From Aduncisulcus paluster (lineage: Eukaryota), in the NCBI GenBank assembly GCA_024181965.1, contig BQXS01010791.1, positions 1 through 36,551 on the forward strand: a stretch of DNA of 36,551 bases, written 5' to 3'. The position numbers were made by a program, and so were the translations under genes. The notes below the pieces were generated by a model, which was not told the DNA's origin, ran no database searches, and saw only the letters and a list, made by a program, of their open reading frames with translations. Of the stretch, positions 15,491 to 34,303 are shown piece after piece (the stretch's first letter is position 1; each line of letters starts with the position of its first letter).

Positions 15491-16956
15491 CTATTCATCT
15501 GGTGGTGGTATAAACTCCCTCATAACAATGGGATGATGATGGGATGTGGTATCCCTTCGTTGTTGTTGCTTTCTATGATGTTTCGGTGATTCAGATTCAT
15601 ATTCTGTTTTATAATCGCTCTTGTAAACATCAAAATGACCATTTCGTTGAATATCTATAAAATTGAAAGAATCTCCAAAGGGAATCGGAGAGCAAGAAGA
15701 ACTGGACTCCTTCGACTTTGAGGTAGAGCTTGTTTGTTCACATAATTTAGGGTCAGATTCATCTAATGAAGAAGTAAATAACGAAGGAGATGAGATAAGG
15801 AAAGAATTGGGAGATGATTGCGAAGAAGGAGAATCAAAATCACTCCCTTGACTCATTTTCCATGGAGAATGCCGTTTTACAAAGATAGTTGACTTGGGGG
15901 AATCAAAAGCTTTGCCACTTGATGATGGCTCTCTCTCTCTCATCGAAGAGTCCGTGGAAAGCATTGATGTGGAAAGAAGCATATCATCTCGAGGAAATAC
16001 AGGCGAAGATGATGAAGAATCATGTTCACCGTCTTTCTTAATTGGTTTAGGAGGACTGAGATGGAGTTTTGGTGGTGAGATTGATGGTTGTTTGGGGGTT
16101 ATGGGCTTTGAGATTCNNNNNNNNNNNNNNNNNNNNTAAGGAAAGAATTGGGAGATGATTGCGAAGAAGGAGAATCAAAATCACTCCCTTGACTCATTTT
16201 CCATGGAGAATGCCGTTTTACAAAGATAGTTGACTTGGGGGAATCAAAAGCTTTGCCACTTGATGATGGCTCTCTCTCTCTCATCGAAGAGTCCGTGGAA
16301 AGCATTGATGTGGAAAGAAGCATATCATCTCGAGGAAATACAGGCGAAGATGATGAAGAATCATGTTCACCGTCTTTCTTAATTGGTTTAGGAGGACTGA
16401 GATGGAGTTTTGGTGGTGAGATTGATGGTTGTTTGGGGGTTATGGGCTTTGAGATTCCAGATTTCTTAGCATGGGAAACAACCAGGGTCGAAAATGAAAA
16501 TGGTGACATTGGCGAGATAGACGTTTCTTTTCCTTCTTTTGTATGTGTTGATGGTTTTGACTTCGATTCGTATTCTTCTGAGTATTCTGAGGTATCAAGA
16601 TCTCTTTGAATCGATGGTGACCTATTATAATTTGATGATTGAGATATTTTTGGAGGAGAGGATTGAATATGGGGACTACTTATGCTTTGATTAGATTTCT
16701 TCTCAGTAATAGGTGATTTTATGGAGGGAGGGAGTTGTGGTTTTGAATATGGCTCTAAATCCTCTTGTTTATGTTTAATATGTTGAGATAATTCTTTTAA
16801 AATGTGTGATACATCAGCACATTCAACTTCAGGGATAGGGGATTCCAACCAAGCACGAATTGACGCAAAATCTTTAGAATGCGGTTGCACATCATACCCT
16901 GCCACTGATGGCCACTGTCTCGATGTAAAAAAATAATCCCATCTATTTTTTGACAT
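15491..16956 (-). CDS. Ser/Pro-rich hypothetical protein, 374 aa after collapsing the assembly overlap; may have a further 3' exon
   Basis: ORFs 16099-16956 and 15491-15982 share identical sequence. Removing the 20 N and one 321-bp copy gives a single 1125-nt reading frame. Confidence 0.8.
15796..16457. repeat. Exact 321-bp direct duplication (15796-16116 = 16137-16457) flanking a 20-N scaffold gap; probable unmerged contig overlap
   Basis: I saw no differences between the copies, and both end exactly at the gap edges (N at 16117-16136). Confidence 0.92.
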
Positions 16957-21004: not shown

Positions 21005-22397
21005 ATGAGCGTATGTTGTTTGAATATAATGCTTTATTTTGATTTATGCTATGATTTTCTGTTTTACTTTTTGAATCACTCTATAGATAGTGCATCATAC
21101 TCAATGTGTAATTAGGATCATAATGATCCACATATTTTTATTAATCAGTATTATTTATAATGTAACATCAATTACAGTTTTTGACGCAGTGTTTGTTCCA
21201 GAAACAGGTTGTCGAGATAGGATTGGATCGTCATATGCGGAAAAACTCTCTGCTCCCTTTTCATCTGCATGTCTTGATTTAGGTATTTACATCACTTTTC
21301 CTGAAACAGCATTCTCATTGTGGCTTTGTGAAGGAGCTAGTGTTAGTATTGGAAGTTGTTATGGAGCTGAGCCATATCTTCTTTATGATGACACATACGA
21401 GACCGATCAAGAATATTTCATTGCCCTCCCGGAATCTTTGCCATGTGGAGGAGAGTTTATTGTTGTTCTTACCGAAGGTGACAATCCAACAGATCCTGTT
21501 CTTGCATACACAGATCCTCCATTCTCCATTTCTGAGATGATGTACTTTGGTGATTCAGTCATTGTTCCAACCGAACCGGGAGTTGTCACCGCAAGGATGT
21601 ACCTGTCATGTCGTGTCGCTGGAGTTATTGATACATTCACTCCCTCATTCTCTGATGAGTCCACGAAACCTGTTGATTATTCTTTTGAAATTCAAACATC
21701 TTCCATAATAGACATGAAAATTAAGATAACTGAGGGCATTAGAGCAGCTCCCATTACTTTAACTGGCGTGACTGCTCATATCCGTCCCAGCAATACTGGT
21801 CCCCTGTGTCCCTCAGATGATGTATATATAACAACTTATTCATATATTGAGCCTGAAATATGGTCAGAATCCTCCGTTTCCATCATCACAGGTCAGCATA
21901 TTAATCCCATATCTCCTTTCCTCTCTTCGCCTCCTCTTAGTATCACTTGGCCATGGTGTGATGCTCCAATTGGATTAGCCATTAATTGGTATGTAACAAC
22001 AGTAATATTTGCCGTGGTCACAGTTCTTTTGGTGATTTTCGTTTGTGTTTGTGTGAGGGCAGGTGTCGAAGAAAAAGAGCATTTTGGAGGACAACGAGGA
22101 AATGGAGTTGGATGTTATCACATGAAAGACCCAGAGTTGATTAAAAATAAGGTCAAACAAGAAGAAAAGGGATTTGAATCGTCTCGTAGTTCGAAATCAG
22201 AACATCCGATTGATAGTGGAATAGAGATGATGAGAGTGAGAAAATCGAGGAAAAGGATTCATAAAATTAACCCTACAGCTGAAATGGATGAAGAGATGGA
22301 TGAAGAAATAAGAGGATACAGCGATATCGATCTCACCGATGAATCTCCAAAAACTCAACCTCTGGTTGTTTGTGACGAGGTTGAACTGAATGAATAA
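21005..22397 (+). CDS. Type I single-pass membrane protein of unknown family; probable exons 21005-21010 and 21087-22397 (alternative start ATG 21123)
   Basis: ATG AGC|GTATGT...CTATAG|ATA GTG CAT is in frame. Signal-like MIHIFLLISIIYNVTS, Cys-containing ectodomain, TM helix YVTTVIFAVVTVLLVIFVCVCV and a charged tail. Confidence 0.85.
21011..21086 (+). other. Spliceosomal intron (76 nt) after a 2-codon first coding exon
   Basis: GTATGT donor, T-rich body with no internal AG, TAG acceptor, in-frame join. Confidence 0.7.
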
Positions 22398-22721
22398 AGC
22401 ATTTGTGATAAATTTTTTGATAATTGAAGGTTATTTTTGTTTTTATCTAACGTGGATTTTTTTTTCATAAATTTTCCCTTTTTGATATAAATCGAGAAAT
22501 CCAAATATTTATTTGTCAAAAAAATCGTTACTTTTGCAAATTCTACAAAAGAAATTCATTATCTTTCATATATACTTTTTTACTATTTGTTTTCGAGGAA
22601 GGATCAATATGATTAACTAATCGAAGCTTCGATTCCACTTTTTATTTGATTTTTAAAGTTTGTTTATTATATTTCAGTTATGGTTTTTGTTTCTAATCAT
22701 TTTTTATATGTTAAATACAAG

Positions 22722-22788
22722 ATTTGTTTCCAGCTCCTTGATGTTGATGGGAGTGGCACAATTGATCGACAAGAGTTAGAAAGATTAG
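22722..22788 (+). CDS. Isolated EF-hand-encoding exon or gene relic (ICFQLLDVDGSGTIDRQELERL)
   Basis: Canonical 12-residue Ca-binding loop DVDGSGTIDRQE at 22740-22775 with correct flanking F and L. It is preceded by CTAAT (22693) and an AG (22720-22721) and followed by AG|GTAAAA. Confidence 0.55.
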
Positions 22789-22794
22789 GTAAAA

Positions 22795-24276
22795 TTACAC
22801 GAGCTCTTCAACATCTCCTTTTTTTACATCAATATCTTCATGGATATCATCAGACAATAATTTTTTGTTTTCTGATTTCCCATCCATTGCTAAATGCTCA
22901 GCAGATCTCACCTTCAAGATGATTGTGAAAAGAATGGCGCAAATACCTGAAGCTGGCATCATAGAGATGATCCAACCTTGGTAACCCCACTTGTCAATGA
23001 TAGCTCCCATAGGGGCACCAGTTAATCCACTTCCAATCTTCTGGATTCCATCAAGGAGTCCAGAAGCTGTTCCAGTAGCTCCATGTCCAGCAAAGTCCAT
23101 AGCGCAAGTACTAGTGATGATTCCGTGAACTCCTGAGAAGAAGATAGAGATAAGCCCAATCATGACAGAACCAGCATAGTCATTCTGGTAAACGAAAACG
23201 AAAATGAACTGCATAACAAACACACCGCAAGTATTGAACAGAGCCACAGGCTGACGTTGAGCGTTACAGAAAAGATCAGAAATAACACCAGCGAGCAGAG
23301 ATCCGAACATTCCACCGATTGTTACTCCGTTGGCGGCAAGGATGTAAGGAATGGAGTTTGTATCATCTCCAAGGGAATTGAAATAGCTTGGATACCATGA
23401 AAGGATACCATCTCTGAACCATCCAATAAGAATCTCACATGCACCAAGGAAGTAGAAAATCTTCTGAGACAAGATTGGCTTGATAACTTCTCTGAAAGGA
23501 GGACGGGCATCACGGATCTGGGGATCATCTCCACGAAGAGTGAACAATTCATCTGCTGTGAACTTGTGCTCGGGGATAGCTGATGTGACCATCCAATCAA
23601 GGAAGAACATGATGAAGAGGGTGATGGCTGGGATATAGAACAGGAAGGGAGTAGGCAAAACGTCAAGAATTAAACCATTCACCTGGAAGGACAAGAAGAA
23701 ACCAAAACTGATAACAACTCCAAAGATTCCAGAGAAGAAACCTCTCTCAGAGATGTGGTACCAGTTCACACCAGCTTTACAGATAGAACTTGTGGAGAAT
23801 GTCTGGAAGAAGTTGTTGATGGCATACAAAATGGAGAGAACAACAACGAACTTAGTCCCAGTGAAATTGGTTTTCTGGGCTCCGTAAATGTAAGCTCCCA
23901 TTACAACATTCATCATACCACTTCCGGAAGTTCCGATCATAATACCCTTCTTGGCACCAATACGATCGACAATGAACCCATTCATGACCACGAATACAGC
24001 ATAAGCCCAGAAACCAACGGTGATAACAATACCAAGGTCATTTACACCAAAGTCCTGCTCAAGCTGAGAATACCCGCTGAGGACATTGATGTTATATCTT
24101 CCCATGTAACTCAGAGCGTATGAGAAACCAATAAGGCACCAGTTTAGTGTTCTGTACTTCGTGAAGTTCTTGGGATGTCCCATTGGATTTCTTTGTGTAT
24201 CAGCGATAATAGCACCTGATACGATGGCAATAGTGAGAGTCCATGTGACAATCTGAGCAATAGTTGAAGGATCCAT
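22795..24276 (-). CDS. MFS transporter of the GlpT/UhpC (organophosphate:Pi antiporter)-like group
   Basis: 493 aa with ~12 TM helices plus an extra N-terminal hydrophobic helix. YALSYMGRYN in TM1, MFS motif A 'GFIVDRIGAK', 'NWYHISERG', 'GVISDLF...RQP' and 'GTASGLLDG'. Confidence 0.9.
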   Translation of the reverse strand: MDPSTIAQIVTWTLTIAIVSGAIIADTQRNPMGHPKNFTKYRTLNWCLIGFSYALSYMGRYNINVLSGYSQLEQDFGVNDLGIVITVGFWAYAVFVVMNGFIVDRIGAKKGIMIGTSGSGMMNVVMGAYIYGAQKTNFTGTKFVVVLSILYAINNFFQTFSTSSICKAGVNWYHISERGFFSGIFGVVISFGFFLSFQVNGLILDVLPTPFLFYIPAITLFIMFFLDWMVTSAIPEHKFTADELFTLRGDDPQIRDARPPFREVIKPILSQKIFYFLGACEILIGWFRDGILSWYPSYFNSLGDDTNSIPYILAANGVTIGGMFGSLLAGVISDLFCNAQRQPVALFNTCGVFVMQFIFVFVYQNDYAGSVMIGLISIFFSGVHGIITSTCAMDFAGHGATGTASGLLDGIQKIGSGLTGAPMGAIIDKWGYQGWIISMMPASGICAILFTIILKVRSAEHLAMDGKSENKKLLSDDIHEDIDVKKGDVEELV

Positions 24277-24941
24277 ACTCTTTAGGTTGACGTGTGATTA
24301 AAAACCCATCTGAAAATCCATTTCTTCCCAATCCAGAATAGATCTTGAGAATATAAAATCTAGGCCAAAATAATGATGATTTTTTCGTAATTTTATGTTT
24401 ATTGTGGATATTTCTTTTTTTTTATAAAGATATTTTAATTTTTTTATGATTGATTTTGCCCACAAGGAAAAAATGTCTGTGGATTGTGTAATTGAATGAT
24501 ATTTCAAAAATTATTTTATTTTTAAAATAATTTTGGATTATTTCATTCTAATTTAACAATCTAATTTTTTGTTAATTTTCTATTTCTTCGTTTTTTGGTT
24601 ATCTCTTGTAATTAGTTTTAAAAAAACGAATATTATTGCATCCTTTCGCTAAAACACAGTTTTAAGTGCTTTATTCAGGTATAGTTTTGTAATTTTCAAA
24701 CCTCTGCCCTCTTTAGGCGAGATGTTTTTTACGTGACTTAAGATATTGTGATTTTATTTATTTTATTCGTTATACATTTTATTCTTAATAAATTGAATTG
24801 ATATTTGCAATTAGAACTTCACTGGATCAATCAGGTGATTGGATTTTGACCTGCCAAGCTACTGGCTTAGTTTTTTTGCTTGTATAAGCTCAAATATTTT
24901 TTTAACGTTCAAAATTATTTATAAATATGCATAAACATATA

Positions 24942-27313
24942 ATGCGTATGTTTTCATTATGATTACCGTTTTGGTTTTGCTGATTTTGTGTGGTGGATTG
25001 ATTTCTCTACTTGAACGGTATTATTCCATCTAAATAATATTTTTTGAAATTAATATTGCTAATGATATTTTATCTTCTATTTTTTATATCATTTTATTAT
25101 ACTTTGTTTCGTACCATCTATTCTATCTGTGACATTTATTTTCCTAAAAATATGATGAAATATTCTAAATTTCAATGATTAAATCAATCTTTGAATTCAT
25201 TTTTATTTCCAAAGCAACTGATTCTTCCCAGGAATCTTCAAAATCAATTTCATCCTCTGTAAATGAATATTCCAGAAGTGAAATGCAAAGAATATATGAA
25301 AATATGAAGTTCTCTAAGAGCGTTTCTTCAACTATTGTATCAATAATTTCCTCAAACATCAAGACACTATCCCCTCAAGCATATGCAAAAGCTCAACGCA
25401 GTTTTACAAAATATCAGAGTTCTCATTCATACACTCCAAAATTTAGTCATAGCACCAGTTTGCGGTCATATTCTTCTCAAGAATCTCTTCCATCTCAGGC
25501 TCATTCGTCCCATTACAAAAATCGCAGTCAGTCTGCCCACACACATTATTCAGAGAAACCTCATGATGATATATCGAAGGAATCATGGGTTGCCGAGGAA
25601 ATGCGTGGAATTGGCGATGAAGCTCTTGAGGCTATCGCCAATGATATTAATGAAAATCTCGACAAGCATCTCCAACAACACGCCGAAGAATTTGAGAAAA
25701 TCGACTGGGATGAGGACGAAGACACTGATGAATATGATATTTTCTGTCCCGATGACTTTGAGAAAAAACGGCAAGAATTGGTCGGTGATGGTCTGGACGA
25801 TTCTTCCCCAACCGCTTCAAACCATCAAATTGATCCACAAAAACCTCACGAGTTGCGTCGTGGTACTGGTCGAGATTCTGATCCTAGCCGTCCTACTCTT
25901 GTTGAAGAAGATATTGGTGGTGAATCCGATCTTCCTCCGGGCATCGCCATTGAAACTTCCCTAAAACCTGACCCCCTGATGCCTATATCTGCTCAAATTT
26001 CCCAAGAACACCCAGACAAAGGATATCAAAACTCTCAATTCCCTCCTTTACTTGCCCCTGTACCTCCCTCAACCTCCGGTGGCATGTCTTCTTCAATGGT
26101 TCTCCCTCCTGCAAACTTTGGAAGATCCTCTAAAGTCTTAGATCCTGGTATGGGTCAATCACGGCCGTCTTTGCACCAGGATCATCAGAGCTTGCCCCAG
26201 CCCCCCCGTCAAGACGCTCCCATGTCTTCTCTTCAAATTCAGCAACGAGAACACGCTTTTAAACAATACATTCAAGAAATAACGCAAGAAATTATGACTA
26301 CAAAGAAATGGTTTGATGATTGTGTTGGTAAAATGGCTGCCGTGGAAAGCGAGCGAAAAAGGGCGCAAGACTGGCTAGCGAATGCCGAATCCATCAGAGC
26401 CACTGTGCCAGATCAGCACATGCAGCAATATAGAGAGAATGTTGTCAGAGCTCAACAGCATGTAACCAAAATGACTAATGAATGGAGACAATTGCAGAAG
26501 AGTGCCGTTGAGATCCAAAAACGAGGGAATAGCCTCGTCCAGCAACAAAAAGAGATGCAAGATCAATATAAATATTTCCAATATAAACTTAGTCAGATGT
26601 ATAGTGGTCCCTCCCTGCAACCTCCTCCTCCATCTCATCTGTACATTGGTTCTGATCCAAGATACCATGATCATGGGCCAAGAGATGGTGCATCTGATCC
26701 ACAACAATACCCACATCATACTGAGATGCCATCTGATACCTCCCAACCTCCCCGTGGAGTCCCACCTCCAATATCTATGTCTGGAGCCCACCCCTCTTAC
26801 CATCAATCATCTGGATACACGCTACATCACCCTCAGATGTATGGTGATATTCCTCAACAACAACCAAGGGGCCTTGACATGATCCCTGGACCTCATCATC
26901 CTTCTCTTCACCAAGCTCCAGCTTCTCCCATGGGTTCTAGACCTCAGTATCCACCTGGTATGCTTCATCAGGGCCCTATGCATTCTCAGCACCCTGTGCC
27001 ACCTGGAATGAGACCCGCACATCCCTCAACTGGACAATATCCTCAGGTTGGGGTCTACAGTGGTGCGATGGAAGACCCTCGTGCAGCTCATCACTCTTCT
27101 CAGCCTCTTGCTCCCTCCACGCCTCGTCGTGCAGACACCCTTTCAACACATCATGTCATATTGTCTCAGCCTCTCGGTCGCACTATAGCCTCTCCGAGTG
27201 ATCTGAGGAGTACAGCTCAATCAAAGGAAACCCTGGATCGGAATGCACAAGCCGTGGATGCTCTTTTGGACCAGTTAAAGATATCCCCACAGAGACCTCC
27301 TAAACGGGAGTAG
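24942..27313 (+). CDS. Pro/Gln/His/Ser-rich low-complexity protein with a central coiled coil; probable exons 24942-24945 and 25215-27313 (~700 aa)
   Basis: Long ORF 25175-27313. ATG C|GTATGT...CCAAAG|CA ACT gives in-frame MPTDSSQES. Q/E/K heptad-rich segment at ~26235-26600. Confidence 0.85.
24946..25214 (+). other. Spliceosomal intron (269 nt) immediately after the start codon
   Basis: GTATGT donor. I found no AG dinucleotide in the body before 25213-25214. The phase-1 join is in frame. Confidence 0.7.
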
Positions 27314-28050: not shown

Positions 28051-29151
28051 TTACAATGCCCATATTTTTGTAATGTCAACGTCAGTTTGCTCAATAGCAA
28101 TTCCAAGATAAGAACTATACGATATTTTTGGCTTTTGGATGTCAGATATTCCTTCTTCAGCATCATGAGATTTGTTTTGTTGTTCATCAAAATGGTCAAC
28201 ATATTTTAACAATTTTGTATCATGAAAGAGTTCCGAGTCCTTATCTTCTGATTCAATAGTATCCTCAAGTGTATGGGTAAATATAGGTTCAGGCTGAGTG
28301 TCTTTCTTCATTCTCACTCCATAATCCGGACTTTTTGTCGCAATATCAATGTATTCGCGGAGTGTTTCAAATAGTTTAACACAGCGAGAGGTAGGTTGAA
28401 TCATAAAGGTGTGTTTCTTCATTTCTATTTTCCCACATGACATAACAAGGGGGCATACGAAGAACTTATCGCCAGTTGACGAGGATTTAATATGAATATT
28501 CTTGATTCGACAATATGGAATCGCTATATTAAAAGATAATGAGACATGGGATACCCATATAAACCTCTTATTTGTAAGGATAATATCACCAAGAATTCCT
28601 GAATCATGGTTGAATGAACTCGCACCACATATCGTCTCTTGAATCATCTCTTTGGGAAGTAATCTGAGATCTTGATTATAAAATAAACTTGCTCTTAATT
28701 TTACCTCACGATAACTTCGAGAACTGTTGTATGCAGAGAAAATGCGATGAGCTGTTGTAATCAAACCTGATTTTCCACCATTTTGATAAAATTCAAATCG
28801 ATATTTCTTTCCATCAGATATTGCACTCACAGCTAAGGTGTTTACATCTTCTAATTTGTGCTTTGTCATCCGAACAACTAAATTCTGAACACTATTCCAT
28901 CCAATTGACAAATTTTTGGTATTATGAGCACATAAAAACCAAATCATTCTTAGGTTGGTAAATTGCAACACTCCTTTTCCCTCAGGATGGCCTCTGGAAT
29001 CAACCACATTTTCATATCGGATGAGGATTATTTCTCCGGGTTTCTTAAGGAGATCTGATAATTTTGTACAAAATCTTATTTTTGAATCCGTCCATATCTC
29101 TGTTGGATATTCTTCATAATGCGAACAGCCAATTTTCGCGAAAAATCCCAT
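28051..29151 (-). CDS. BBS5: Bardet-Biedl syndrome 5 protein (BBSome subunit, two PH-like domains), divergent
   Basis: Motifs collinear with BBS5: 'IWTDSKIRF', 'PGE', 'GVLQFTNLRMIW', 'NLSIGWNSV', 'AYNSSRSYREVKLRASL', 'LRLLPKE', 'TNKRFIW...SFNIAIPY', 'LGIAIE'. Confidence 0.92.
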   Translation of the reverse strand: MGFFAKIGCSHYEEYPTEIWTDSKIRFCTKLSDLLKKPGEIILIRYENVVDSRGHPEGKGVLQFTNLRMIWFLCAHNTKNLSIGWNSVQNLVVRMTKHKLEDVNTLAVSAISDGKKYRFEFYQNGGKSGLITTAHRIFSAYNSSRSYREVKLRASLFYNQDLRLLPKEMIQETICGASSFNHDSGILGDIILTNKRFIWVSHVSLSFNIAIPYCRIKNIHIKSSSTGDKFFVCPLVMSCGKIEMKKHTFMIQPTSRCVKLFETLREYIDIATKSPDYGVRMKKDTQPEPIFTHTLEDTIESEDKDSELFHDTKLLKYVDHFDEQQNKSHDAEEGISDIQKPKISYSSYLGIAIEQTDVDITKIWAL

Positions 29152-29598: not shown

Positions 29599-31743
29599 CT
29601 AGTGTCCTGGATCAATTGTGATGTTGAAACTTCTCTTGATCGAGAATGAAGCAGGCTGTGAATGATCTTCAGTGTATGTTCCTGGGCCAGGAACAGACAT
29701 CTTGGATGAGTCAATAAACCTATCACCTCGGCCAAACGAGTCTTTGGATACAATTCGATGATTATGGCTCTTCAGAGAATATGAACCTGGACCAGGCGTA
29801 TCACTAACCGACGTTTTCTGTTTCTCATAATTAAATCTATTATTAGATGAACCAAATGGAACAGATTCGGCTCTACGACGTCTAAAACCACCTGTGAATG
29901 ACCCAACATGACGCTGTCCTTTGCCCTTCTTCGCTCTACGAATCCTTTCTTTCTCATCTTTCTCCATAATTTCTTGACGTTTTAAAGACATTTTACCTTC
30001 ACCAAACCTTCCGGTTGCTGATTTAAACGAACTTCCACTCACACTTCTCTTCGGCTGGGGCCGGGAGGAGAGATCATAGGCACCAACAACACCACGACGT
30101 GCTTCTGCTTCACGTTTAACCTTGAACCGGACATTGCCACTCCCAAAACCGAGCATATCCCGGCCAGAACCGGCCAATTTCCTCTTGACTTTCCCGATAG
30201 TTTCAATTGCCTCAGGCATGTGTAACAAAGCCTCCTCTAGTCCTCTCTCAGCGGCTTCATTGTCGAATGTTTGGTCCTTGAGAGTTTGTTCACGGCGCCA
30301 AAGAGCAGCCTGCCACATCTTGTCTTTCCTTTTCCTCTCAATTAGAACCGGATCTGCCGAACGAACATCATACTGACCGACAGCAGGCAGTGCAGCGCTT
30401 GATTTGGACAATATTCCGTGGTCAAAACGTTGTGAACTTGAACCAAATGAGCCAATACCAAACTTAGAGGGTTTGAAAACAGCCTTGGGCATTGTGGAGG
30501 TTAGTTTATCTCGCAGTATTCCACCTTGAGGGGTATTCCCGGAGGTCGACGCTCTGAGTTTTGATGAAACAGCCGCAGACTGGCTTAATCTATCCTGTTT
30601 TTGAGGAGAAAGAGGTGCTGTCGACATTCTTGAACGCTCTTTTCTCGAGTTATTCCCATATTTGAGGACACTCTGGGTTTTGAGTTTCATGGGGCTCAGA
30701 AGATTATAACTACCGGGTCCAGGTTCATATTTAGAACCTCCAAGACGATCAATGTCATACATTTTCCTTGTAACAACTTCGGTGATGCCCAAACCACCAC
30801 GAGGACCATCACGATCACTGCCACTAATAAAGACCTGCCTGGGATGCAATAAAGATCGTTTCTCTTGGATAATACGCTCTTTTTCAATCCTATCTTCGAT
30901 CGTGAGATATTTCTGTGTATTGTAACAACCAGGACCAAGATTGGCATTCTCACTCGTACCGGTTTTGGAATAAGTTTGACCGCCACTGCCAGAAGTTCCA
31001 CTAAAGAAGGCCGCCGATGGACGGAGAAGATCTTTACCAGTGACTTGACTACAATCAGCGACAGAATAATGGAACACGTTGTAATGGGAGGGGCCGGGCA
31101 ATTCTCTGGGCAATGGATTCAATAAATATGGAACACTTCCGGCTTTCTCACGCCTTTTGCGGACGGATTCCCCAGCACTCTTGGTTCTATCGGGAGCTTT
31201 TGCCCAAGCACTTTCGGCCTTACCTCTCATGGATATTCTATGCTTTTTTTCTCTGTCAATAACATATGATCCGGGACCAGGCTCCTCATTATCGCCAGTA
31301 AATATCCTCTTGGGCATGATTGCAGGAGCTGTGGGCTCTCTTTCGGCTTTTATAGAAAGTTTGGCATGGTTAATATATGCTAAAGATGGTTTTTTTCTCG
31401 TTTCACGATCAATATGGGAACAATAGGAGCCGGGACCAGGCATATCGGACTTCTGAGTCTTAAAACGGGAGTGTCTTCCACCAAATGATGGCTGTAATTG
31501 TCTTTGTCTTCTAGCAGCATCGGAAGTCACACTTCTATCGTCCAAAATATATTCACCTACACCAGGAGTCTTGAATTTGCTATCAGCAATAGTTTTCCTT
31601 TCAGAAGTACTAAAGAAGGGTGCTCTTGATAAAATGGTCTTCCTTTCTGAAGGAATAGAATATGAACCAGGACCTAAATGAGAAGCATTTCGTCCTCCAG
31701 TAAGAAAATCAAAAGATCTTTCAGATCTTGCACAAAATGCCAT
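29599..31743 (-). CDS. SHIPPO-1/ODF3/STPG-type PGP-repeat axonemal protein
   Basis: About 11 PGPGxY-type repeats (LGPGSY, PGVGEY, PGPGSY x4, PGPSHY, LGPGCY, PAVGQY, GVVGAY, PGPGTY) with FxSxxxRF spacers in a basic 714-aa protein. Confidence 0.9.
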   Translation of the reverse strand: MAFCARSERSFDFLTGGRNASHLGPGSYSIPSERKTILSRAPFFSTSERKTIADSKFKTPGVGEYILDDRSVTSDAARRQRQLQPSFGGRHSRFKTQKSDMPGPGSYCSHIDRETRKKPSLAYINHAKLSIKAEREPTAPAIMPKRIFTGDNEEPGPGSYVIDREKKHRISMRGKAESAWAKAPDRTKSAGESVRKRREKAGSVPYLLNPLPRELPGPSHYNVFHYSVADCSQVTGKDLLRPSAAFFSGTSGSGGQTYSKTGTSENANLGPGCYNTQKYLTIEDRIEKERIIQEKRSLLHPRQVFISGSDRDGPRGGLGITEVVTRKMYDIDRLGGSKYEPGPGSYNLLSPMKLKTQSVLKYGNNSRKERSRMSTAPLSPQKQDRLSQSAAVSSKLRASTSGNTPQGGILRDKLTSTMPKAVFKPSKFGIGSFGSSSQRFDHGILSKSSAALPAVGQYDVRSADPVLIERKRKDKMWQAALWRREQTLKDQTFDNEAAERGLEEALLHMPEAIETIGKVKRKLAGSGRDMLGFGSGNVRFKVKREAEARRGVVGAYDLSSRPQPKRSVSGSSFKSATGRFGEGKMSLKRQEIMEKDEKERIRRAKKGKGQRHVGSFTGGFRRRRAESVPFGSSNNRFNYEKQKTSVSDTPGPGSYSLKSHNHRIVSKDSFGRGDRFIDSSKMSVPGPGTYTEDHSQPASFSIKRSFNITIDPGH

Positions 31744-32044: not shown

Positions 32045-32707
32045 TCATTCAGTTTTAATAATGAAATTGGCCAATTCTTTTGATATTTTGTGGAGAGGAA
32101 ATCCCATCACATTGAAATAAGATCCATGCATTTCAGTGCACCATGTTGATGCTGTACCCTGAATTGCATACCCACCAGCTTTATCGTATGGCTCAGAAGA
32201 CTTCGAATATTCTTCAATGAGAGCAACGGGAATATCTCCGAAGGTTAACTCAGTAGTATCGTGGAAAGATACAACAGAATTCTTCCCATCCTTTGAATAT
32301 TTTCCATTTATAACCATACAAACCCCAGAGATAACACGATGCGTTGATCCTGATAATTTGGAGAGAATTTCAAGTAAGTCTTTTGTATCCTTGGGTTTTC
32401 CAACTATTGGAGATCCCCTGTGTGTTTTATGTTCAGGAAATATAACAACAGTATCAACACCGATAATTAAATCCCATTCTTTGTCCTGAGCTTGGCAATG
32501 ATCAACAACCCATTGAGCTTTACCAACGGCAGACGCAGTAACATAGTCATCGGGACGAAGAGATATATCAACGGTATCTTCATCAAACTTACTTTTAATG
32601 ATTTCAAACTTCACTCCAATCTGGGACAGAAGTTCTTTACGTCTGGGTGACCCTGAACCTAATATGATTTTTTTAGAGTTCAATTTTTCAAGTAAATGCA
32701 AAATCAT
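32045..32707 (-). CDS. maf: Maf/YhdE-family nucleoside triphosphate pyrophosphatase (ASMTL N-domain-like), 220 aa
   Basis: IILGSGSPRRKELL, IIGVDTVV, GKP, LSGSTHRVISG, EPYDKAGGYAIQG, GSYFNVMGFP. The first ATG is at 32707; the ORF-track start is TTG. Confidence 0.95.
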   Translation of the reverse strand: MILHLLEKLNSKKIILGSGSPRRKELLSQIGVKFEIIKSKFDEDTVDISLRPDDYVTASAVGKAQWVVDHCQAQDKEWDLIIGVDTVVIFPEHKTHRGSPIVGKPKDTKDLLEILSKLSGSTHRVISGVCMVINGKYSKDGKNSVVSFHDTTELTFGDIPVALIEEYSKSSEPYDKAGGYAIQGTASTWCTEMHGSYFNVMGFPLHKISKELANFIIKTE

Positions 32708-33272: not shown

Positions 33273-33971
33273 TTAGAATTGGAGAAGTTTACTATTTTGA
33301 AAAGGAAGAACACCAATCGATGTTGGCAAAAATATTGAAGCTCCTTCAGTTGGCCACTGAAACTGTTCTATCTCTTCTTCTTTTTTATCATCGTGTATCT
33401 CTTCTTTCTTTTCATCTTCATCTTCCTCATCCTCTTTTTCTATCTTATCTGGATCATATGCATGTGCAGACCGAACCGCATCATCTTTTTGTTCAATTAC
33501 CACATCATCTATTTCCTTAATAAATCCCTTTCCCGTTAATACATCGGTCGAAAATACCTTTTGCTCCCCCTTTTCATCTAACAATTCTGACTCTGGAAGG
33601 ACTGAAATATCACGCTTTTTAGGCCCTCTATCTTTCGAAGGTTCGACTTTAACGGTAAAAGTAATTTGTTTTTTCCTTAAATCCTGAGAATATTCGACAG
33701 AATCTTCAATTACTGGATAAGGAAGTTTAATAACAATTGAATATATATTTAAATATTTAAAAAGAAGTAATCTCTTCTGCAAATCGGCATCAATCTTTGA
33801 ATAATCTTTGACATAAGGGATAGATAAAGTTATAACGAGAAAATCAGGTCGACGAATAATATCATCGTAGGATGGATTTCCAACAATATCTGAGGATCCT
33901 CTATGCACTGTATGATCAAGAGATTGAAAACTTGACCGCTCTTTAATTGAATATTGTGGCTTGATGGGCAT
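33273..33971 (-). CDS. Kintoun/DNAAF2-like protein containing only the PIH1 CS-like domain, an acidic linker and the C-terminal FQNS motif
   Basis: 'KPQYSIKER', 'RPDFLVITLSIPYV...YSIVIKLPYPV...KKQITFTVKV' and terminal 'LPFQNSKLLQF' resemble the C-terminal half of DNAAF2/PF13. Start at ATG 33971 or 33992. Confidence 0.7.
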   Translation of the reverse strand: MPIKPQYSIKERSSFQSLDHTVHRGSSDIVGNPSYDDIIRRPDFLVITLSIPYVKDYSKIDADLQKRLLLFKYLNIYSIVIKLPYPVIEDSVEYSQDLRKKQITFTVKVEPSKDRGPKKRDISVLPESELLDEKGEQKVFSTDVLTGKGFIKEIDDVVIEQKDDAVRSAHAYDPDKIEKEDEEDEDEKKEEIHDDKKEEEIEQFQWPTEGASIFLPTSIGVLPFQNSKLLQF

Positions 33972-34303
33972 GTAGAAGCAAAACAAACACATTGTTGAAA
34001 TGAGAAAAGTGCATGTGCTATTTCGGATTAAAATGGTAATAAATTGGAATGATATGTAAAAATTAAGGTGTAAATATTTGATATTTACAGAGAATAATTC
34101 ACACGATCACGTCAAAATTAATCTTAGAAAGGATAGAGGAAAATGGTCCACCAATATTTCATATTTTAGTGCCCATTATCCTAAATTCCCTCTTCTTTTA
34201 TTGCGTTCTTGATTTTTTTGATTCTTGACCCTTTTGTCTAAAAATAGAGATCGATCTTTTTATTTGCTAGATTTGTTAACACCTACGAAATTTCGATTGA
34301 GTT

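Follow-up and report, generated by a model that had tools for sequence, protein, structure and literature searches.

The spacer next to an MFS transporter gene of Aduncisulcus paluster contains a short piece of DNA that encodes an EF-hand on the plus strand. Does this piece belong to a hidden gene, assembled by splicing around the transporter or in trans, or is it a stray copy of something encoded elsewhere? The stretch that we analysed, referred to here as the window, is one entire contig of 36,551 bp. The piece is inside a 397-nt spacer between two convergent genes, 324 nt past the stop codon of the upstream ORF, and forms the immediate 3′ flank of the MFS gene, antisense to it (Table 1). 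An earlier note had described it as an orphan exon, with a candidate micro-exon gene that would hold the whole MFS gene within a 1,871-nt intron as its headline model.

Table 1. Positions of the features discussed, in window coordinates.
Feature	Position	Strand	Remark
EFCAB9-like gene fragment, third EF-hand	22722..22788	+	ICFQLLDVDGSGTIDRQELERL plus base 1 of Gly codon
Branch-point-like CTAAT, T-rich run and AAG (3′ splice-site lookalike)	22693..22721	+	no intron here in related loci
GTAAAA, 5′ splice-site-like hexamer	22789..22794	+	spans entire gap to MFS stop codon
MFS transporter gene, P0002, 493 aa, intronless	22795..24276	-	organophosphate:phosphate antiporter type, under curated cut-offs
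ORF, 424 aa, no Pfam family	21123..22397	+	upstream of fragment, same strand
First proposed micro-exon, rejected	24660..24678	+	no parent/orthologue similarity; chance-level in-phase piece
Second proposed micro-exon, rejected	24815..24834	+	no parent/orthologue similarity; chance-level in-phase piece

The EF-hand and its parent protein

The 67-nt piece encodes a canonical EF-hand. The 80-aa ORF around it (22680-22922) scored 28.3 bits with the Pfam model EF-hand_5 (cut-off 25.9), 25.0 with EF-hand_6 (cut-off 25) and 24.8 with EF-hand_1, slightly below the cut-off of 25.4. An EF-hand (PF13202, PF13405, PF00036) has a 12-residue loop between flanking helices, in which positions 1, 3, 5, 9 and 12 carry acidic or polar ligands, position 6 is a glycine and position 8 is hydrophobic. 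The Ca2+ loop of the piece, DVDGSGTIDRQE, has all of these loop residues. When all six frames of the window were scanned with a PROSITE-style loop pattern, the single match was at 22740, and the pattern was present in 3.5% of 200 block-shuffled windows. The pair model, EF-hand_7, reached 21.4 bits against a cut-off of 30 and thus did not indicate a paired EF-hand; the family profile described below found no second EF-hand in any frame of the window. As the earlier note had said, neither a start codon nor an upstream exon was found nearby. The GC content of the piece was 0.403, compared with 0.284 for the spacers and 0.401 for the ORFs of the window. This coding-like composition, together with the lack of any disabling mutation, speaks against reading the piece as a fragment. 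Over 22300-25300, Rfam gave just two bacterial sRNA matches, both sub-threshold, and no repeat family tied the piece to other sequence.

The parent is P0001 (GKT34880.1), annotated in Aduncisulcus paluster as an "EFCAB9 like protein" of 226 aa on a separate contig of 6,926 bp, outside the window. Its residues 107-130 match the 22-24 residues encoded by the piece (KICFQLLDVDGSGTIDRQELERLG) with 100% identity. With tblastn, P0001 matched the window at 24/24 positions (E 1e-11), and the identity dropped abruptly on either side. When 2141 six-frame pieces of the window were searched with the family profile by hmmsearch, this one alone (E 2e-10) scored better than E = 2; it covered positions 98-132 of 201. 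Among the best 150 of 946 matches in 1.84 billion cluster representatives, P0001 alone was near-identical (84% over the 35-aa query); 148 others had 37-59% identity, and one had no value. In a 5.8-billion collection, P0001 was the only protein of 44-2000 aa that contained the piece, and a search limited to 44-140 aa returned zero candidates. Therefore, the piece is in no gene model of the window contig. The EF-hand exceeds chance, and the decisive point is its 24/24 identity to a protein of the same species. Pfam, the loop pattern and this identity all confirm that a genuine EF-hand gene piece is present out of context on the plus strand, in the 3′ flank of the MFS gene, as the earlier note had recognized. 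It cannot be called an orphan, because its intact parent is annotated in the same genome. The note had itself allowed that an intact parent elsewhere would make the piece a pseudogene fragment, and the protein search found that parent.

P0001 has six homologues with 46-51% identity, which align through the region of the piece and one of which is from Carpediemonas membranifera. Full-length orthologues exist in other fornicates, and the family profile matched mouse EFCAB9 (PDB 7eeb chain I) with E 6e-50 over profile positions 7-186. P0001 is thus a genuine conserved gene, and the parental context is taken as the ancestral one. We defined a full-length EFCAB9 by similarity over about 170-230 aa, with EF-hand lobes and the conserved FDEFYLLICMLIAIKD helix. 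P0001 shows this similarity, whereas the window does not: although the fragment corresponds to the third EF-hand of the fold, just about 24 of about 200 family positions are present, so the window locus encodes no EFCAB9 protein. The calcineurin-B-like or NOX5-type resemblance proposed previously gives way to membership of the EFCAB9 family. In mammalian sperm, EFCAB9 (EF-hand calcium-binding domain-containing protein 9) serves the CatSper channel as its Ca2+/pH sensor (bioRxiv 10.1101/459487).

Borders of the piece and its surroundings

We searched the window for further parts of the parent. With P0001 as the query and E values up to 100, tblastn gave one HSP, which was the piece, and noise. 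Parent residues 1-106 upstream and 131-226 downstream of the MFS gene left no trace in any frame, and no parent-like sequence was found beyond 24276. The further parent 6-mers in the window were RGKGFI and the low-complexity KEKRKE on the opposite strand, with no others. We regarded RGKGFI at 22246 (parent residues 38-43) as a chance match; it is in an alternative frame within the ORF 21123-22397, its flanks mismatch and it has no splice sites. LFLF at 22431 and FDIN at 22481 were also set aside, being 4-mers of AT-rich codons in the wrong order.

Every splice-like site quoted in the earlier note is present where it was placed. Upstream of the piece, CTAAT occupies 22693-22697 and AG 22720-22721; downstream, 6 nt separate the piece from the complement of the MFS stop codon (22795-22797). 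That the identity stops at AG on one side and before GTAA on the other, with CTAAT and a T-run upstream, resembles a true exon and argues against a fragment. However, the AAG before the piece doubles as the codon of the parent's preceding Lys, and the GT of GTAAAA also finishes the parent's Gly130 codon (GGT), so the exon-like borders are ambiguous. Protein identity to the parent covers 22719-22790 (K107-G130). The fragment could reach about 22701-22796 if weak in-frame similarity (FL; G-K/I-I) is counted, and an extension by one or two codons, to 22796, is possible. A continuation past the fragment, G-K-I...FNIS (parent G-I-I-F-N-F-S), was rejected as a composition effect, because this plus-strand frame runs antisense to the acidic MFS tail in codon register, and that tail can itself be aligned with the tail of the paralogue.

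Among 12 related metagenome loci, six were uninterrupted and five had an intron behind the residue that aligns with K94; in two of these five, another intron split the G119 codon. At 107/108 and at 130, all 12 were free of introns, and none had the MFS gene or another window neighbour beside the EFCAB9-like gene, although their flanks were short. Species-specific introns at both fragment ends are possible, since 11,743 introns in 15,316 predicted proteins were reported for Aduncisulcus paluster (PMC9933649). The ORFs of the window itself are nearly all without interruption.

The MFS gene is also a duplicate. P0002 is a paralogue (91%) of the expressed P0003 (GKT34334.1), which is on another contig, and the two share an identical core of 241 residues between diverged ends. 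This suggests gene conversion among dispersed copies in the genome. The MFS protein had no match in the PDB.

In the explanation that we favor, the segment is probably an ectopic copy of the part of the EFCAB9-like gene that encodes the third EF-hand. The copy is short, at about 70 nt with an upper limit of about 100 nt, and is likely to be an inert by-product. The piece has homology to an intact gene in the genome, while a local start and the remaining coding sequence are missing. The copy has no start codon, partner EF-hand or further parent exon within reach, and would most likely have been left by the rearrangement or duplication that placed the MFS paralogue here. Gene fragments of this kind include filler DNA inserted where a break was repaired, incomplete segmental duplicates and retro-fragments. 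Here, the copy might have been captured as filler DNA at a repaired break or be a fragment of a segmental or retro-copy. It shares with dispersed gene fragments and partial pseudogenes the out-of-context position, the intact parent, the absence of a start and neighboring exons, and the location next to another duplicated gene; it differs from them in its 100% protein identity, undamaged reading frame and splice-site-like breakpoints. Perfect identity at the protein level implies that the copy is young or has been held identical by gene conversion. No amino-acid change was found over 52 non-synonymous sites, and the neutral divergence of the copy would be bounded at about 0.058 or less (95%). 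If transcribed, the copy would be untranslated 3′ UTR, sense in the transcript of the upstream gene and antisense in the MFS transcript. Plus-strand reads over the fragment could thus be the 3′ UTR of the ORF 21123-22397, considering the 324-nt distance from its stop.

Alternative explanations

The piece might owe its place here to read chimerism or to misjoining in a fragmented draft assembled from short reads. The published draft has an N50 of 4.6 kb and 25,863 contigs (PMC9933649), and the window contig contains a gap of 20 Ns at 16117-16136, with flanking sequence that is duplicated at an offset of 341 nt. However, both flanks of the piece are unique, and the piece with its two junctions fits in one 150-nt read. 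A repeat-mediated wrong join would carry parental flank on one side, and none was found. One DNA run contains 0.94 of the words sampled from 21100-25200, a figure that is not specific to the junctions. We thus regard an assembly artefact as improbable.

It is also conceivable that a second, full EFCAB9-like paralogue stood at this locus and was broken up when the MFS gene arrived and as deletions removed sequence, with one exon left. The fragment does abut the MFS stop codon, and the MFS gene is a duplicated paralogue with a remodelled C-terminus. Nevertheless, the lack of any trace of the two missing parts of the parent argues against this history, as does the stop of the preceding gene only 324 nt away. 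Total decay elsewhere is also hard to reconcile with 24/24 identity in the piece. The suggestion that the gene was destroyed by insertion of the transporter finds no further gene remnant on either side, and we consider such a history rather improbable too.

There is a slight chance that the copy functions as RNA, in antisense, instead of as coding sequence, or that it is a real exon connected by trans-splicing to exons at other sites. As the copy is antisense and immediately follows the MFS stop, the MFS 3′ UTR would contain a stretch of about 70 nt that is complementary to the mRNA of the EFCAB9-like gene.

Taken by itself, trans-splicing of the Giardia split-intron type, in which a transcript of the piece from this locus would be spliced to exons from other loci, seems very unlikely. 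The borders are splice-site-like, and split genes are joined in trans in the related diplomonad Giardia (PMC5224939; PMC8494341; PMC4085374). Both cases share the Fornicata lineage and an exon-like piece far from its own gene. However, the extended signals are different here. GTAAAAT agrees with the Giardia 5′ signal GTATGTT at 4/7 positions, although this consensus (PMC5224939) is that of Giardia and the species may differ. The 11 nt before 22722, TTAAATACAAG, agree by eye with CT[AG]ACACACAG at 5/11 positions, too few for the 3′ signal, and ACTAACACACAG with at most two mismatches was not found abutting the fragment (22710-22721). The Giardia cleavage motif TCCTTTACTCAA, which may also differ in this species, occurred 42 times with up to three mismatches, compared with 56 expected. 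The two half-introns of a Giardia-type split intron also base-pair with each other; within the window, no inverted repeat was found between 22789-22900 and the spacer past the MFS gene. Trans-splicing would moreover be needed at both ends of a 67-nt exon, an arrangement described for none of the Giardia cases in the passages and abstracts consulted (PMC5224939; PMC8494341; PMC4085374). Trans-splicing is unnecessary, as these residues are already encoded by the gene model of P0001, which is complete on one other contig.

The weakest alternative is the local micro-exon gene, in which 22788 is joined to 24660 and then 24815, with the MFS gene antisense in the intron. Nested genes, in which one gene lies within an intron of another on the opposite strand, have this geometry, and host exons on both sides of the inner gene would be expected to continue one reading frame with support from homology; here no homology-supported exon exists beyond the MFS gene. 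The two proposed micro-exons are real as sequence: the 19-nt piece stands between GCTAAAACACAG at 24648-24659 and GTATAG, and the 20-nt piece between TTAG and GTGATT, within a GC-richer island (24799-24891). The joins are in phase and stop-free, and GCTAAAACACAG fits the diplomonad/parabasalid 3′ motif at 10/12 positions. Their status as exons, however, does not exceed chance. Among the 27 pieces of 10-40 nt bounded by AG and GT on the plus strand of 24277-25174, 21 are likewise stop-free in the phase left by 22788. With at most two mismatches, the 3′ motif occurred six times in the window against 1.9 expected, the other five in ORFs or elsewhere. The predicted continuations, VLSALF and RTSLDQS, are unlike the conserved one, since the parent and its orthologues read IIFNFS... 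or FIFNFS... after ...ERLG, and no parent 4-mer maps to either micro-exon. Adding the missing start codon and upstream exon and the absence of the piece from the proteins of the window contig, we consider this gene extremely unlikely. Neither a nested nor a trans-spliced gene is supported.

Implications

If the copy were active as RNA, natural antisense or small-RNA regulation could link a transporter to a flagellar Ca2+ sensor; if it were an exon joined in trans, split genes of the Giardia type would extend to an organism that is free-living and Carpediemonas-like. A spliced or antisense RNA would be of far greater interest, and no present evidence points there. The case is mainly cautionary. 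Here a textbook motif, lying in a spacer and flanked by splice-like borders, mimicked a hidden micro-exon gene, and a protein search exposed it as a stray bit of a gene that had already been annotated. Gene fragments that escape annotation are present in drafts of such genomes and can mislead motif-based scans. The fragment itself is a modest marker of recent small-scale DNA shuffling, and possibly of gene conversion, in a free-living relative of Giardia that has been little studied.

A probable pseudogene fragment of an EFCAB9-like gene

The evidence shows the EF-hand-coding piece to be most probably a pseudogene fragment, whose parent gene is intact on another contig. It lies antisense to the MFS transporter gene and immediately downstream of it, with 6 nt between it and the complement of the MFS stop codon, and a + strand gene stops 324 nt upstream. 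CTAAT, a T-run and then AAG directly precede it and GTAAAA directly follows it; every coordinate in the earlier note proved correct when the sequence was checked. Its translation (ICFQLLDVDGSGTIDRQELERL) scored above the Pfam cut-offs of EF-hand_5 and EF-hand_6. It was also the single match in six frames of the window to an EF-loop pattern of PROSITE style, and 3.5% of 200 block-shuffled windows contained that pattern. The GC content of the fragment (0.403) was that of the ORFs (mean, 0.401), and the spacer mean was much lower (0.284).

Features located in the window
Feature	Position	Strand	Remark
ORF of 4,189 aa	2385-14954	-	single, uninterrupted, without intron
20-N gap	16117-16136		region 15852-16609
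Palindrome	22619-22634		16 nt, perfect
EF-hand fragment	22722-22788	+	67 nt
MFS gene	22795-24276	-	493-aa product
GC-richer island	24799-24891		at least 0.40 over 67-nt windows
BBS5	28051-29151	-	cilium/flagellum-related
SHIPPO-repeat protein	29599-31743	-	cilium/flagellum-related
Maf-like gene	32045-32707		between SHIPPO-repeat and PIH1-CS genes
PIH1-CS domain protein	33273-33992	-	cilium/flagellum-related

Word-indexed searches of 5.8 billion proteins returned a sole match to the fragment at lengths of 141-2000 aa, P0001 (GKT34880.1), and no match at 44-140 aa. P0001 is a 226-aa A. paluster 'EF-hand calcium-binding domain-containing protein 9 like protein', encoded on one 6,926-bp contig different from the present one. 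Its residues 107-130 (KICFQLLDVDGSGTIDRQELERLG) are identical to the translation of window 22719-22790, and the similarity is lost at both ends (FLYVKY vs FLFRHS upstream; KITRAL vs IIFNFS downstream). HMMER found 946 matches (E <= 0.001) to the 35-residue piece among 1.84 billion cluster representatives. Among the best 150 of these, P0001 was the sole near-identical one (84% over 35 residues), and 148 others were ordinary EF-hand proteins at 37-59% (one carried no identity value). The piece is not the orphan that the earlier note took it for, and P0001 is the intact parent that the note's fallback reading, a pseudogene fragment, called for.

Sequence comparison indicates that P0001 is a genuine conserved gene. 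Its six homologues (46-51% identity) include a Carpediemonas membranifera protein and align through the fragment segment with the consensus TCFELLDEDGSxTISxxEFExFG. The family profile matched mouse EFCAB9 (7eeb chain I) with an E of 6e-50, and calmodulins and CDPKs were far behind (~1e-8 to 1e-11). Because the homologues align here and the profile matches mouse EFCAB9, the EFCAB9-like gene is where the segment originally belonged, and the copy in the window is the derived one. Clear EFCAB9 orthologues among fornicates were observed in A. paluster, C. membranifera and uncultured relatives (alignment A2; metagenome loci L001-L011). One preprint describes EFCAB9 as the Ca2+/pH sensor for the CatSper channel of mammalian sperm (bioRxiv 10.1101/459487).

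Fragment borders and introns of related genes

Two readings fit the AG that precedes 22722 and the GT that follows 22788: splice sites, or equally the last two bases of the parent codons Lys107 (AAG) and Gly130 (GGT). We aligned P0001 to 12 related metagenome loci (L001-L012), the last of which is probably a different EF-hand protein. The EFCAB9-like gene is without interruption in six (L001-L006). In five (L007-L011), the residue that aligns with K94 is immediately followed by a break, with GT at each one inspected; L010 and L011 have a second break inside the Gly119 codon (G/GT...AG/G), so that D95-G119 forms a 73-nt exon. At 107/108 and at 130, all 12 loci are free of breaks. These comparative data argue against real splice sites at the borders. 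If A. paluster shared the introns of its relatives, the piece would straddle one and would stem from spliced RNA; if the parent is without introns in this region, the piece is a plain slice of coding DNA. It would be a true exon only under species-specific introns, for which the 11,743 introns reported in this species, with 15,316 predicted proteins (PMC9933649), leave room.

The palindrome AATCGAAGCTTCGATT, some 90 nt upstream of the fragment, occurs as one copy in the window, in a slightly GC-richer spacer patch. It may be the 3'-end hairpin of one convergent gene, or it may have arisen by chance.

Alternative origins of the fragment

The fornicate Aduncisulcus paluster is free-living and Carpediemonas-like. 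The window is one entire contig (36,551 bp), AT-rich and gene-dense, with long and uninterrupted ORFs. The one of 4,189 aa encodes a giant surface protein with leucine-rich repeats, Cys-rich (EGF-like) segments and a C-terminal membrane anchor. The BBS5, SHIPPO-repeat and PIH1-CS genes are all on the minus strand inside 6 kb.

It is improbable that an assembly artefact placed the fragment here, although the published draft is fragmented (PMC9933649) and this contig has a 20-N gap with duplicated flanks. The flank copies are offset by 341 nt (translation 15889-16041 equals 16230-16382, and 15852-16139 equals the one that starts at 16193), probably through an error of scaffolding that leaves one Ser/Pro-rich gene as two ORFs, 15491-15982 and 16099-16956. 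The 70-nt piece has unique flanks on both sides, unlike the product of a repeat-mediated misjoin.

That a second EFCAB9-like paralogue was wrecked in situ is likewise improbable; further parent remnants were found on neither side of the fragment. Searching P0001 against the whole window by tblastn (E up to 100) returned the fragment HSP and noise, and nothing else. Among 2141 six-frame pieces, the family profile matched solely the piece with 22692-22796 (E 2e-10), the next best being at E 2.3. Exact k-mer mapping of the parent gave two further 6-mers, which we rejected: RGKGFI comes from an alternative frame of ORF 21123-22397 and its flanks do not match the parent, and KEKRKE is low-complexity and on the opposite strand.

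The earlier note had proposed a micro-exon gene with the MFS transporter nested in its intron. This was unsupported. Its micro-exons (24660-24678 and 24815-24834) would encode VLSALF and RTSLDQS, but [IF]IFNFS is the continuation in the parent and in every homologue, and exact mapping placed no parent 4-mers on either. Among 27 pieces of AG, 10-40 nt and GT on the + strand of 24277-25174, 21 were stop-free in the required phase; in-phase micro-exon-like pieces are therefore expected by chance. GCTAAAACACAG (24648-24659) agrees at 10/12 positions with the diplomonad/parabasalid 3' motif. With <=2 mismatches, this motif was found six times in the window (1.9 expected), the others being in unrelated places.

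Giardia-type trans-splicing of the piece and an antisense RNA in the MFS 3' UTR are, even taken together, very improbable. One report of Giardia split introns describes GTATGT(T), CT[AG]ACACACAG, paired half-introns and the cleavage motif TCCTTTACTCAA (PMC5224939); the fragment signals agree with this consensus at only 4/7 (5') and 5/11 (3') positions, TCCTTTACTCAA is unenriched (42 found vs 56 expected), and the P0001 gene model already includes these residues on a single contig.

The MFS gene and ORF 25175-27313 are divergent, and the spacer that separates them holds the GC-richer island. Neither an ORF nor similarity to the EFCAB9-like family is present in this island, which may represent a promoter, an element of a 5' UTR or a further small fragment.

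The remodelled MFS gene and a possible origin of the copy

The MFS product is organophosphate:phosphate-antiporter-like (Pfam MFS_1, 1e-31), with the PgtP, UhpC and GlpT models all far under their cut-offs. P0003, encoded on a 30,719-bp contig, is its paralogue at 91% identity. The two share an identical run of 241 consecutive residues (129-369) and diverge at both ends, with differences at 17 of the 128 alignment columns at the start and through most of the 35 at the end. At the variable positions, including the tail, the transcript-derived P0004 agrees with P0003 and not with the window copy. This pattern suggests gene conversion between dispersed copies.

This remodelled paralogue has its stop codon 0-6 nt from the start of the EFCAB9 fragment, which may have been picked up, or left over, in the same rearrangement. 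The fragment has zero amino-acid changes from the parent at 52 non-synonymous sites; either their neutral divergence is about 0.058 or less (95%), or the copy was homogenised by conversion. In the 12 related loci, whose flanks are short, no MFS gene stands next to the EFCAB9-like gene. A stray gene fragment is an ordinary kind of feature, and the present one is without annotation.
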